From sequence record NC_019500.1: 64,000 nucleotides of DNA; one strand, 5' to 3'. Under the pieces are notes generated by a model. That model had not been told where the DNA came from. It saw nothing but the letters and a program-made list of their open reading frames with translations, and ran no database searches. Source of the DNA: Escherichia phage Bp7. The first letter of the stretch is position 1; each line of letters begins with the position of its first letter. Positions 9,340-11,696 of this stretch are shown here, piece by piece. The translations under genes were made by a program, and so were the position numbers.

Positions 9340-9601
9340 AAAAGTCAAGACTATTTTGTCTGTGGGTACTCACGAAGTCCTGTTTGAAAAGGCCGACGGT
9401 AGTGCACGTCGTATGACTTGTACACGTGACTTAGACCTGCTTCCATATAAAGAAGTCCAGGCCCCTGGGCCTGAAGCCAATAAAGAACCTGTTAATTATA
9501 TCAGAGTATTTGATACCAAGGTTAATGAATGGCGTTCATTCCGTTTCGATAAGCTGATTTCCGTTAATGGGCTTCAGACTGAAACTCTGCTTGTCATGTA
9601 A
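9302..9601 (+). CDS. Hypothetical protein
   Basis: 99 aa ORF. Confidence 0.45.
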   Translation: MILTEQETIRLREKVKTILSVGTHEVLFEKADGSARRMTCTRDLDLLPYKEVQAPGPEANKEPVNYIRVFDTKVNEWRSFRFDKLISVNGLQTETLLVM

Positions 9602-9628
9602 TATGCTTTAAGAATAGCGTGTTATTAT
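9602..9628 (+). promoter_or_regulatory. Putative middle promoter (MotA box TATGCTTTA, 12 nt, TATTAT) upstream of gene 31
   Basis: Motif match. Confidence 0.5.
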
Positions 9629-9659
9629 TAATCTATCAACAAAACAATATGGATTAAAT

Positions 9660-9983
9660 ATGGAACTTCCTATTAAAGCGGTCGGAGAATATGTTATTCT
9701 CGTTTCCGAACCAAAACAAGCTGGTGATGAAGAAACTACTGCATCTGGTATCGTTATTGGCAAACTTCATCAAGGTGAAATCCCTGAACTTTGTGAAATT
9801 TATTCTGTAGGACCTGATGTCCCTGAAGATTTTTGTGAAGTAGGCGATTTGACTCCACTTCCTGTTGGTAAGATTGCTAACGTGCCTCATCCTTTGGTTG
9901 CATTGGGTATTAAACAACCTAAAGAAATTAAACAAAAATTCGTTACCTGTCACTATAAAGCTATTCCTTGTCTTTATAAGTGA
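9660..9983 (+). CDS. 31: Co-chaperonin gp31 (GroES-like, capsid folding)
   Basis: 107 aa; size, position next to rIII and cd; GroES-like fold assigned by T4 synteny. Confidence 0.75.
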
Positions 9984-9991
9984 TATAAATA
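9984..9991 (+). promoter_or_regulatory. Possible late promoter TATAAATA
   Basis: Exact TATAAATA upstream of rIII. Confidence 0.3.
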
Positions 9992-10129
9992 ATAATATGG
10001 ATTGGCTGCCGGACTAGTTAGTTAACCGGAGAATCCTAAGCGGTGGACTACAACTGAGAGACTTGCCGAAAGGAAGTGAAATTCAGAAGAACGTGTCCAC
10101 CAATCTTTATCTCGAATTGAGAAACTAAA

Positions 10130-10378
10130 ATGAACAAACAATTGAATCACGCTCTTGAACTGCAACGCAACGCTTGGAACAACGGTCACGAAAACTACGG
10201 CGCATCTATTGATGTTGAAGCCGAAGCACTGGAAATCCTGCGTTATTTCAAACATCTGAATCCTGCTCAGGCTACTCTGGCTGCTGAACTGGAAGCTAAA
10301 GATGAACTGAAATTTGCTAAGCCTTTGGCTTCAGCAGCTCGTAAAGCAGTACGTCATTTTATTATTACCCTGAAGTAA
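10130..10378 (+). CDS. rIII: Lysis inhibition accessory protein rIII
   Basis: 82 aa; MNKQLNHALELQRNAWNNGHENYGASIDVEAEALEILRYF matches T4 rIII. Confidence 0.85.
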   Translation: MNKQLNHALELQRNAWNNGHENYGASIDVEAEALEILRYFKHLNPAQATLAAELEAKDELKFAKPLASAARKAVRHFIITLK

Positions 10379-10410
10379 ATTAAATCGAGGAGCCGTCGAA
10401 CTGTTTGATT

Positions 10411-10437
10411 AATGATTTGCGAATCATTATAGTTTTA
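10411..10437 (+). terminator. Hairpin AATGATT-tgcg-AATCATT followed by U-rich stretch
   Basis: Inverted repeat seen directly. Confidence 0.35.
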
Positions 10438-10641
10438 AGACCCCAACAGTTTTACGGTGTACCTCTTGAATGTATTTTGTACTATCACGCGTCAGAAAAA
10501 GGTTATCTGTCTAAGCCGTGGTCGGTATGATGACGAGGTTTATGGTTATCCTGTCGTTAAATATCCGAAACCTATGTTCCCCTTGAGGGCTTGCGCAGGC
10601 AACGCCAATAAGTCCTGCATCCTAATTTAAGAGATTTAAAA

Positions 10642-10803
10642 ATGGCTAAGAAAGAAGTTAAAGTAGTTGACGGTACCTCTAAACGCGCTGGTTACAAGCG
10701 TGCGTCCAACAAGCGTATCAATCAGGTAGTTGATAAGCTTCAAGCTCGTGCTCGTGCAGTATTGCGTGCAGATGCTGCTTGCTTTGGTAAGCCTCAGGCA
10801 TAA
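10642..10803 (+). CDS. Small basic hypothetical protein (53 aa)
   Basis: MAKKEVKVVDGTSKRAGYKRASNKRINQVVDKLQARARAVLRADAACFGKPQA; RBS aagag 8 nt upstream; followed by strong terminator. Confidence 0.45.
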   Translation: MAKKEVKVVDGTSKRAGYKRASNKRINQVVDKLQARARAVLRADAACFGKPQA

Positions 10804-10808
10804 GTTAT

Positions 10809-10837
10809 GGGACTCTTCGGAGTCCCATTTTTGTTTC
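10809..10837 (+). terminator. Rho-independent terminator GGGACTCTTCGGAGTCCC + T-tract
   Basis: Perfect hairpin plus T run. Confidence 0.6.
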
Positions 10838-10854
10838 TAAATCTTTAAAAAAGG

Positions 10855-10883
10855 GTGTACATCTCCGGTAGGCATGATACTAT
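10855..10883 (+). promoter_or_regulatory. Putative early promoter (GTGTAC, 17 nt, TACTAT)
   Basis: Motif match. Confidence 0.45.
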
Positions 10884-10927
10884 AGACATGTACCAAATAA
10901 TACGAAAACAAACTGGAGAATAAAATG
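10881..10927 (+). repeat. 47-nt promoter/leader cassette, copy 1 (TATAGACaTGTACCAAATAATACGAAAACAAACTGGAGAATAAAATG)
   Basis: 46/47 identity with 11287..11333. Confidence 0.9.
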
Positions 10928-11257
10928 AAAACTGTAAATCTGAATGCATCTGTTAAAGCTAAATGTTTCAACGGTGAATATCAAGAAACCATGTGGGTCC
11001 TGACTGCAGTTGAAGGTGATATCATCGAAGTTGAAACAACTGAAGGTATGGGTACTGATTTTACATTCACCATCGAGCTTCACAACTTCTTTACAGGTTG
11101 GATTTATGAACTGAAAACTGTAATTACTGGTCGTATTGAAGAAAACAAAAATGGTGAATTCTATTATGTTAATGCCCGTACACGTGCTGAACGTCTGATT
11201 GCTCAGATGAAAAAAGTTGGTAAACTTGATATGAAAAATTGGAATGTTGTGAAATAA
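10925..11257 (+). CDS. Hypothetical protein
   Basis: 110 aa ORF preceded by conserved leader and RBS ggaga. Confidence 0.55.
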   Translation: MKTVNLNASVKAKCFNGEYQETMWVLTAVEGDIIEVETTEGMGTDFTFTIELHNFFTGWIYELKTVITGRIEENKNGEFYYVNARTRAERLIAQMKKVGKLDMKNWNVVK

Positions 11258-11260
11258 ATG

Positions 11261-11289
11261 TTTTACTTTGGTACAGGTTGTGTTATTAT
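11261..11289 (+). promoter_or_regulatory. Putative early promoter (TTTTAC, 17 nt, TATTAT) inside hairpin GGTACAGG/CCTGTACC
   Basis: Motif match. Confidence 0.45.
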
Positions 11290-11333
11290 AGACCTGTACC
11301 AAATAATACGAAAACAAACTGGAGAATAAAATG
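11287..11333 (+). repeat. 47-nt promoter/leader cassette, copy 2
   Basis: 46/47 identity with 10881..10927. Confidence 0.9.
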
Positions 11334-11696
11334 AACTACATCAACTTCGAACGTAAATATGTTTCTAACGGTATCGCTGGTTCTTCTGAAGTTATTTGCC
11401 TGTGGAAACACAACAACGGCGCGGTGTGCGAAATCGAACAGTGCATGACTCCTAACTACGTTTATATGCGCTTTGAAAATGGTATTACGGTTTCAATCAC
11501 AATGGAAGGTTCTACTTTTAAAATCGCTTTAGATGATGATTTCCGTCAACGTGATTTAGGTACCCATCCTTGCTGGAACGGTTCTAATCGTAAGCTTCTG
11601 GTTAAAACCTGGATTCGTCACATCCTGAGCAACCGAGCTAAACCTGAACACCTGGAAGCAATCTTTGATGTAGTTCTGAATGAATTCGATATCTAA
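11331..11696 (+). CDS. Hypothetical protein
   Basis: 121 aa ORF preceded by same leader. Confidence 0.55.
   Translation: MNYINFERKYVSNGIAGSSEVICLWKHNNGAVCEIEQCMTPNYVYMRFENGITVSITMEGSTFKIALDDDFRQRDLGTHPCWNGSNRKLLVKTWIRHILSNRAKPEHLEAIFDVVLNEFDI

Follow-up and report, generated by a model that had tools for sequence, protein, structure and literature searches.

Type III antitoxins, among them ToxI of the abortive-infection system ToxIN, are RNAs that fold as H-type pseudoknots with single-stranded tails. CptI is 45 nucleotides (nt) long, with a first loop (L1) of 1 nt and a long A-rich second loop (L2), and one repeat is enough for antitoxicity (PMC5086642; PMC4627078); TenpI has two stems, two loops and an A stretch, and its repeats are longer and non-identical. 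According to the accessible literature, PhiTE is the only phage known to use a mimic of such an RNA, pseudo-ToxI, whose published arrangement is 1.5 repeats (PMC5449768), and the known counter-measure of T4 against ToxIN is a protein, TifA. Two further classes of RNA- or DNA-level elements have been described for T4-type phages. The leader of T4 gene 32 contains a pseudoknot, 67 nt upstream of the start codon, that acts as a translational operator (PMC3014915), and cassettes combining an early promoter with a stem-loop (PeSL) are found in repeated copies (PMC2839356, PMC4122927). Here we compare with these systems the 263-nt spacer between the lysis gene rIII and the small gene 30.9 in a stretch of 64,000 nt from Escherichia phage Bp7 (NC_019500.1; the whole stretch is referred to as the window). 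The spacer begins after the rIII stop codon (TAA, 10376-10378, + strand) and ends before the start of gene 30.9 at position 10642.

As judged by comparison with relatives, the spacer is a chain of separately folding, conserved RNA modules whose predicted helices are kept by compensatory changes. It matches 774 phage records, with 74-99% identity across Tequatrovirus, Mosigvirus and Dhakavirus, and its 3' part can still be made out in Gelderlandvirus and Mosugukvirus. The alignment on which the following results are based comprises about 50 distinct rIII-30.9 gaps from more than 10 genera plus uncultured relatives. Close relatives differ by 1-nt insertions or deletions within the best-conserved segment of the spacer, and these frame-breaking changes rule out that the segment is translated. 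The RNA is assigned to the + (mRNA-sense) strand because of frequent G-U pairs and a strand-biased sequence motif, UAAGHC, described below. Gene 30.9 was already known; the spacer modules B, C and D and an element X found in relatives are new motifs, absent from Rfam, but of a familiar kind, namely conserved structured intercistronic phage RNA. The initial annotation, made from the letters of this DNA, had proposed a regulatory RNA here. Covariation in modules B and D bears out the structured non-coding RNA; the regulatory role is unproven and is partly contradicted by a shifting order of modules and a shifting distance to the start of 30.9.

We note that the spacer sequence alone is not beyond chance, and the case for function rests wholly on the comparison with relatives. 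The folding energy of a 295-nt region is unremarkable against shuffled sequences (z = -0.09 on the + strand, -1.5 on the - strand), and promoter-like sites in the region occur at the level of shuffles (5 versus 3.9 expected). No tRNA or tmRNA was detected in the window or in 11 related loci. Covariance-model searches with Rfam 15 at permissive E-values gave no meaningful match in positions 9500-11500, in 10500-10650 or in the 11 related loci; the best match on a short slice, 'Proteo-phage-1' on the minus strand (13.6 bits, E = 2.9), is noise. As a control, a genuine ToxI array also went undetected, so that the silence of Rfam is uninformative for type III antitoxins. Within the 64-kb window there are no further copies of B, C or D, with the exception of a related multi-layer hairpin, K, in the spacer between genes 31 and rIII.

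The best-supported unit is module D (10525-10576, + strand). Its core is an H-type pseudoknot of 45 nt (10532-10576), preceded by the conserved 5' tail GUAUGAUG; this universally conserved pseudoknot goes beyond what the initial annotation had described. The first stem, S1, is GAC[G]AGG/CCTGTC (10532-10538 / 10550-10555) and the second, S2, is TTATGG/CCTATG (10540-10545 / 10571-10576); L1 comprises 1-2 U, and a conserved 15-nt A-rich loop, GUUAAAUAUCCGAAA, lies 3' of S1 (10556-10570). Module D is present in every one of the approximately 50 distinct spacers. Its covariation score is 0.38 versus 0.19 for shuffles (0 of 500 reach the observed value) and at most 0.19 when partners are slid against each other, and 8 of the 12 pairs carry double changes, with both stems covarying. 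Variants of S1 in relatives include GTC[G]TAG/CTAGAC and GTGG/CCAC; variants of S2 include TTGGTAG/CTACTAA, TTGTGAG/CTCACAA, TTCAAGG/CCTTGGG and TTGAAAG/CTTTCGG. In the group of T4 and JS98, S2 is weaker and is reduced to two G-C pairs, a bulge and 2-3 further pairs. The architecture is that of a type III antitoxin RNA, that is, an H-type pseudoknot of about 35-45 nt with an A-rich loop and single-stranded tails.

Two other identities were considered for module D and rejected. A likeness to the 5' half of the pistol ribozyme, as in the env25 sequence (a P1 hairpin whose loop forms a pseudoknot with a strand further downstream, and a 'CG-UUAAAUA' linker after P1), was a lead that did not hold: no consistent P2/P3 or G-U cleavage site was found among 30 variants inspected, and a 151-nt slice gave no match at E = 10 in Rfam, which includes the pistol family. 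A preQ1-like riboswitch likewise found no Rfam support.

Module B (10387-10465, + strand) consists of a long hairpin of about 80 nt with four helical segments: GAGG/CCTC (10387-10390 / 10462-10465), CCGT/ACGG (10393-10396 / 10454-10457), AACTGTT/AACAGTT (10399-10405 / 10445-10451) and an apical stem (10410-10417 / 10422-10429) closed by a UGCG loop. The perfect hairpin AATGATT-tgcg-AATCATT that had been pointed out in the initial annotation is present (10411-10417 / 10422-10428), extends to 8 bp (10410-10417 / 10422-10429) and turns out to be the tip of this larger, covarying structure; a relative from IMG/VR (L038) keeps the apical stem (10410-10429) through changes from U-A to C-G and from A-U to U-G. 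Across 12 distinct sequences, the 23 pairs of module B are 98.6% paired and 5 of them show compensatory double changes. None of 500 shuffles reaches these values, slid partners pair to at most 64%, and the G-U pairs fit the + strand only. A pair of sigma-70-like hexamers, TTGATT-N17-TATAGT (10405-10433, + strand; 9 of 12 consensus matches), lies inside the module as a possible but weak internal promoter. T4 has CTGATT at the -35 position of these hexamers, and the whole apical part of module B is deleted in STML-198.

Module C (10484-10522, + strand) is a two-tier hairpin with an outer stem ATCACG/CGTGGT, an inner stem CAGA/TCTG (10493-10496 / 10506-10509) and the sequence UAAGCC in its 3' internal loop. 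The inner stem covaries, with CAGA/TCTG replaced by CAGC/GCTG in three relatives (L053, L023, L056). By eye, module C is only loosely similar to the S1 hairpin of module D. It is absent from T4.

The 3' part of the spacer contains two small hairpins that together account for the GC-rich stretch CCCCTTGAGGGCTTGCGCAGGCAACGCC, noted in the initial annotation and present at 10579-10606. The first is a mini-hairpin, E5', of the form CCC(C)-TTGA-GGG (10579-10589, + strand) within the conserved motif GT(T/A)CCCYTNGAGGGCTTG; it lies inside the motif GTWCCCYTNGAGGGCTTG, which is followed by the second hairpin, hp. E5' is invariant in close relatives, and distant ones have CCTC/GAGG (L051) or GCC/GGC (L072, L108). 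Module hp (10595-10618, + strand) consists of a stem GCAGG/CCTGC with the loop CAACGCCAAUAAGU and stands just upstream of the Shine-Dalgarno (SD) sequence of 30.9. Its support is modest, with 97% of cells paired and a single covarying pair (A-U, U-A, G-U) in close relatives; the stem is GAACTGG/CCAGTTC in Gelderlandvirus, and different hairpins occupy this position in other genera. The hairpins B, C and hp have in common a copy of the motif UAAG[ACU]C, in each case in the 3'-side loop (10436-10441, where it reads UAAGAC, 10512-10517 and 10609-10614, all on the + strand). Three copies in the spacer of the window compare with about 0.2 expected (P about 0.0016), and over all distinct spacers 68 copies on the + strand are found versus 7 on the - strand.

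The order of the modules is not fixed. T4 has the order A-B-D-E5', where A is a unit described below, the Bp7 window has B-C-D-E5', JS98 has B-X-D-E5' and Klebsiella phages have T-D-A-X-E5'-K. Further arrangements are E5'-X-D-A in EcS1, E5'-D-A in Winklervirus and D-E5' alone in W143. Module D lies between 1 and about 240 nt from the rIII stop codon and between about 60 and about 300 nt from the start of 30.9. Even inside the genus Dhakavirus, some phages have module A and others lack it, and C and X replace each other; Bp7 carries neither A nor X. The free order, number and distance of the modules fit independent units better than one integrated riboregulator. Two rearranged loci extend this picture. 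In one (L081, 1450-1690), gene 30.9 breaks off after about 15 codons and runs on into another open reading frame (ORF), and the E5'-D-A-hp leader is intact; in the other (L085, 1100-1290), the block consisting of D, E5', hp and the ribosome-binding site (RBS) is joined to the final 26 codons of rIII and is followed by tRNA genes.

Where the window has module C, JS98 (L001, 2093-2228) has element X, of about 135 nt, which also occurs in many other genera, for example in Klebsiella phage P545 (L027, 634-768). It is predicted to form five helices and a loop-loop pseudoknot, with 96.8% of cells paired and compensatory changes in 18 of 32 pairs, and has no Rfam match. X may well represent a new class of structured RNA.

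Module A, absent from Bp7, is a single ToxI-like unit present in T4, T2, T6, Mosigvirus and many T4-like phages of Klebsiella, Enterobacter, Serratia and Citrobacter; in many T-even phages, including T4, T2 and T6, it directly follows rIII (L003, 875-905, in T4T; T4 AF158101, 130749-130779, minus strand of the record; L005, 572-604; L027, 598-630). It matches 66 small mobilizable plasmids of E. coli, Salmonella, Klebsiella, Yersinia, Pectobacterium and Serratia, 3-10 times each. In plasmid pNMEC-O75B the matches form a tandem array of 36 nt x 5.6 units, AGGTGATTTGCTACCTTTAAGTGCAGCTAGAAATTC, directly upstream of a gene annotated as 'type III toxin-antitoxin system ToxN/AbiQ family toxin'; this is the ToxI antitoxin array (plasmid L088, 1228-1427). 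The units of Klebsiella phages, Mosigvirus and Dhakavirus-like phages are identical to ToxI at 30-32 of 36 positions and that of T4 at 25 of 36, compared with 15-20 of 36 for control segments. Compensatory changes (UUGC/GCAG to UCGC/GCGG) preserve the pseudoknot stems of module A, which also still has the AAAAU tail at its 3' end. The same unit is found in 21 viral contigs of IMG/VR, including a contig of 142,349 bp with 1.5 repeats, the arrangement reported for PhiTE; as in PhiTE, the relatives' locus holds a phage-borne, intergenic copy of one or few units. Module A is deleted in Bp7, whose spacer starts TAAATT|AAATCGAGG, exactly at the site where relatives have the unit. In the accessible literature we found neither a ToxI-like unit reported for T-even phages nor, in work on T4 rIII/30.9 transcription, T4 small RNAs and T-even pseudo-ToxI, a description of the spacer modules.

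Several of the viral contigs with ToxI-like units are unrelated to T4 and have 1-2 copies in intergenic positions (among L113, L114, L115, L122, L123, L125, L126 and L130). In one of them, two such units lie directly downstream of a consensus promoter.

We favour, with a probability of roughly 40%, a reading in which each spacer module is an independent decoy RNA that binds protein, and in which the hairpin nearest the SD sequence tunes the translation of 30.9. Each module would act individually as a protein-binding RNA, and the modules would most likely be counter-defence decoys modelled on type III antitoxins. By supplying such decoys throughout infection, the phage could keep a host RNase toxin inhibited after host transcription is shut off. 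Module D would be a candidate mimic of another antitoxin, and the 3'-most hairpin together with the SD sequence would set the translation of gp30.9. Bp7 has lost module A and carries C where JS98 has X. The decoy reading is favoured since D shares the architecture of type III antitoxins as well as its locus with a ToxI-like unit. Compared by description only, D resembles CptI and TenpI in its 45-nt H-type core with two stems, a first loop of 1-2 nt, a long A-rich second loop and conserved single-stranded flanks. The persistence of the module array in the phage with a truncated 30.9 (L081) also points in this direction. Furthermore, rIII is reportedly served by early, middle and late promoters (PMC9409239), and the resulting continuous supply of RNA would suit an RNA that must outlast host shut-off.

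Several observations weigh against this reading. The spacer of Bp7 itself has no ToxI-like unit, with no blastn match to ToxI-carrying plasmids or E. coli genomes and with segments that align at 15-20 of 36 positions, so that this phage is tied to type III systems solely through the homology of the locus; the remaining modules lack sequence similarity to ToxI (20 of 36 in the control alignment of D). Unlike CptI and TenpI, D is a single copy without a tandem array, without an adjacent toxin gene and without a sequence match in bacterial genomes or plasmids. Tandem Repeats Finder reported no repeats in positions 10300-10900 at scores of 30 or more. Modules B, C, D and hp gave no blastn match to E. 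coli genomes and nothing relevant among plasmids, where one Bacillus plasmid matched with E = 0.2 (E up to 10 in both searches), and a strict motif scan for D in 185,579 GTDB genomes yielded 19 scattered, chance-like single matches; both blastn and the motif scan are insensitive to diverged antitoxins. No ToxN/AbiQ, CptN or TenpN gene is adjacent, the downstream gene being 30.9, and no toxin partner is known. A phage mimic would need no linked toxin, and the missing toxin gene does not exclude mimicry. Many RNAs with other roles contain H-type pseudoknots with A-rich loops, and the invariable presence of D suits a housekeeping cis-element better than an arms-race gene. Finally, T4-family Serratia phages of the species of Kc304 (Winklervirus chi14) are still aborted by two heterologous type III systems, ToxIN_Pa and TenpIN_Pl (PMC5449768), and Kc304 carries both D and an A-like unit.

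An extended form of the decoy reading would regard the spacer as an RNA-only counter-defence island, in which shuffling decoy RNAs are produced from one constitutively transcribed operon. Module A would mimic ToxI, D would mimic the antitoxin of a CptIN/TenpIN-like or other RNase-based abortive-infection system, and the UAAGHC hairpins (B, C and hp) as well as X would target further host factors. We regard this stronger version as rather doubtful. Should the modules prove to be decoys, phages would possess multi-target RNA anti-defence loci that are missed entirely by protein-centred searches, and the ToxI-like unit of T4 could be tried directly against ToxIN variants. Although no lytic phages have been studied better than T4 and its relatives, the spacer is unannotated; the T4 reference record has a gap of 244 nt (130541-130784 of AF158101) between 30.9 and rIII without any listed feature.

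The alternative that survives best is a cis-acting leader, a long structured 5' untranslated or intercistronic region that sets the translation of gp30.9 and the stability of its mRNA. Here D would be an operator bound by a protein, possibly gp30.9 itself, as in the autoregulation of gene 32, the hairpins would be barriers to processing or stabilisers, and the SD-proximal hairpin would gate access of the ribosome. D and 30.9 co-occur in every genome examined, and in the two rearranged phages (L081, L085) the block of D, E5', hp and RBS stays attached to whichever ORF follows. In most genera a CUCC or CCUC further upstream is the pairing partner of the SD sequence (GGAAGA or GAGG), and both strands covary (GGAAG/CUCC versus GAGG/CCUC); in the Bp7 window and in T4, however, this sequestering pairing is weak. 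The protein fits an RNA-binding partner: it is short and strongly basic, and its invariant SKRAGYKRxSN falls in an N-terminus predicted to be disordered, as is typical of RNA-binding tails. The parallel with the gene 32 leader comprises an H-type pseudoknot in the 5' leader of a T-even gene, a distance to the start codon of about 65 nt for D in comparison with 67 nt, and a downstream protein that plausibly binds RNA. It does not extend to the sequence, which shows no similarity, and the fixed distance and unstructured A/U-rich tract to the RBS that characterise a gene 32-type operator (PMC3014915) are not found for D: across relatives the distance lies anywhere between about 60 and about 300 nt, and the intervening RNA holds structured modules in place of an unstructured A+U-rich segment. 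D also swaps its order with E5'. An operator acting by proximity should not tolerate such variable distance and order, which weighs against the cis-leader reading, as do the whole array kept in L081 without a functional 30.9 and the presence at the locus of a ToxI-like unit and of X, neither of which has an obvious role in the control of 30.9. We consider a cis-acting leader possible, though not probable. If D were the operator of gp30.9, it would be the second T4 case of translational control by a pseudoknot and a first handle on a conserved orphan protein; under either this or the decoy reading, D and X are well-supported new RNA motifs absent from Rfam.

Cut from the rIII-30.9 transcript, the modules might also serve as phage small RNAs unconnected with toxin-antitoxin defence, either as trans-acting regulators of mRNAs of the host or the phage or by titrating host RNA-binding proteins such as Hfq, ProQ, S1 or RNase E. 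Their autonomous folding with conserved loop sequences, the strand-specific UAAGHC loop motif repeated three times and the tolerated reordering of modules are in line with this proposal. None of the modules, however, has a terminator-like 3' end, and the ToxI-like unit is left unexplained, making trans-acting small RNAs an unlikely explanation.

Still less likely, in our view, is a function at the DNA level, with an early promoter in a stem-loop (a mobile cassette of the PeSL type) driving 30.9 and the other conservation reflecting recombination hot spots. The hexamers TTGATT-N17-TATAGT inside module B and the mosaic nature of the locus would agree with it, and true repeated promoter-leader cassettes lie just downstream, before 30.8 and 30.7 (10890-10927, 11296-11333). 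Like PeSL cassettes, the spacer modules are intergenic, associated with stem-loops and tied to the modular shuffling of a variable region. The hexamers, however, match at 9 of 12 positions and such sites are no commoner than in shuffled sequence; T4 has CTGATT in place of the -35 hexamer, and STML-198, W143, UGJNEcP1 and PM2 lack this part entirely, so that the promoter content is weak and unconserved. The combination that defines the class, a consensus early promoter with a stem-loop in multiple copies, was not found for the spacer modules in the 64-kb window, where B, C and D have no repeats elsewhere, and compensatory changes that make use of G-U pairs indicate selection on RNA of the + strand.

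That the spacer is decayed or unannotated coding sequence, or a set of chance hairpins in an AT-rich genome, is hardly credible and in practice refuted by the frame-breaking indels between close relatives and the covariation of D and B: the spacer does contain a 41-amino-acid (aa) ORF starting with TTG and a 57-aa ORF starting with GTG, some GenBank records annotate small coding sequences here and the single-sequence folding energy is unremarkable, but neither ORF has a Pfam or PHROG match, in agreement with the initial annotation, and the conservation spans more than 10 genera.

Gene 30.9 (10642-10803, + strand) encodes the conserved Lys/Arg-rich protein of 53 aa that had been noted as a small basic ORF in the initial annotation. 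It is annotated as gp30.9 in JS98 and T4 and matches phrog_1427, a family of unknown function (E = 4.3e-27). There are 95 homologues, all hypothetical, and those with a named source all belong to T4-like phages; the motif SKRAGYKRxSN shows almost no variation. The position of the gene between rIII and 30.8 is held in JS98, T4, at least 10 further genera and uncultured relatives. An AlphaFold2 model (pLDDT 68) places SKRAGYKRxSN in a disordered basic N-terminus, followed by a single helix (residues 24-48). The protein has no Pfam match and no PDB homologue by sequence; from its composition and the model, gp30.9 may plausibly bind nucleic acid. The RBS, first described as good, is only moderate: the Shine-Dalgarno region AAGAGA (10629-10634, + strand) provides AAGAG/GAGA 7-8 nt upstream of the start codon.

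The window derives from a T-even phage of the genus Dhakavirus (JS98-like), with an identity of 99.6% to vB_EcoM_IME281 (9900-11300) and of 96% to JS98. The local gene order on the + strand is cd, 31.2, 31.1, 31 (9660-9983), rIII (10130-10378), the 263-nt spacer, 30.9, 30.8 and 30.7, where the ORF at 10130-10378 matches phrog_1457 (lysis inhibition accessory protein, E = 5.5e-43). The strong terminator noted in the initial annotation is an intrinsic terminator (10807-10838, + strand) that closes the 31-rIII-30.9 transcription unit. It consists of a 9-bp stem with 5 G-C pairs, a UUCG loop (stem-loop 10807-10828) and a T-run, is kept in T4 and is annotated as a terminator in three other phage records. 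As no terminator was found between rIII and 30.9, the spacer should form an intercistronic part of 31-rIII-30.9 mRNAs that end at the terminator after 30.9.

Some additional features were observed in the neighbourhood. The spacer between 31 and rIII (10000-10105) starts at a late-promoter box, TATAAATA, and contains the multi-layer hairpin K, GGTGGA-CTACAAC-...GAAA...-GAAGAACGTG-TCCACC (inner hairpin 10042-10101). Compensatory differences to T4 are visible in K (GGTAGT/ACTACC, ATCT/AGAT), which has no Rfam match; the same hairpin motif is found in the rIII-30.9 spacer of Klebsiella phages (L027, 795-852), where the Bp7 window has hp. A search of IMG/VR for rIII homologues gave at least 15 loci, and among those listed, Aeh1-like phages have an unrelated basic ORF of 142 aa after rIII and no module D. 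For example, a 233-kb Aeh1-like phage (L086, 1150-2020) has a distant rIII homologue (40% identity), a gap of 157 nt without module D and then the unrelated, highly basic 142-aa ORF, which is not 30.9. Downstream of 30.9, genes 30.8 and 30.7 are preceded by the same 38-nt leader, GTACCAAATAATACGAAAACAAACTGGAGAATAAAATG (10890-10927 and 11296-11333), each copy with a promoter-like stem-loop upstream; these units resemble the PeSL-type repeated regulatory cassettes of T4-type phages. With respect to public records, some lengthen 30.9 at its 5' end into an ORF of 72 aa, which overlaps the conserved hairpins (L003, 1072-1290; L021, 916-1134; L024, 979-1197), small coding sequences are called inside the spacer, and several records label gp30.9 as '1,4-alpha-glucan branching enzyme'.

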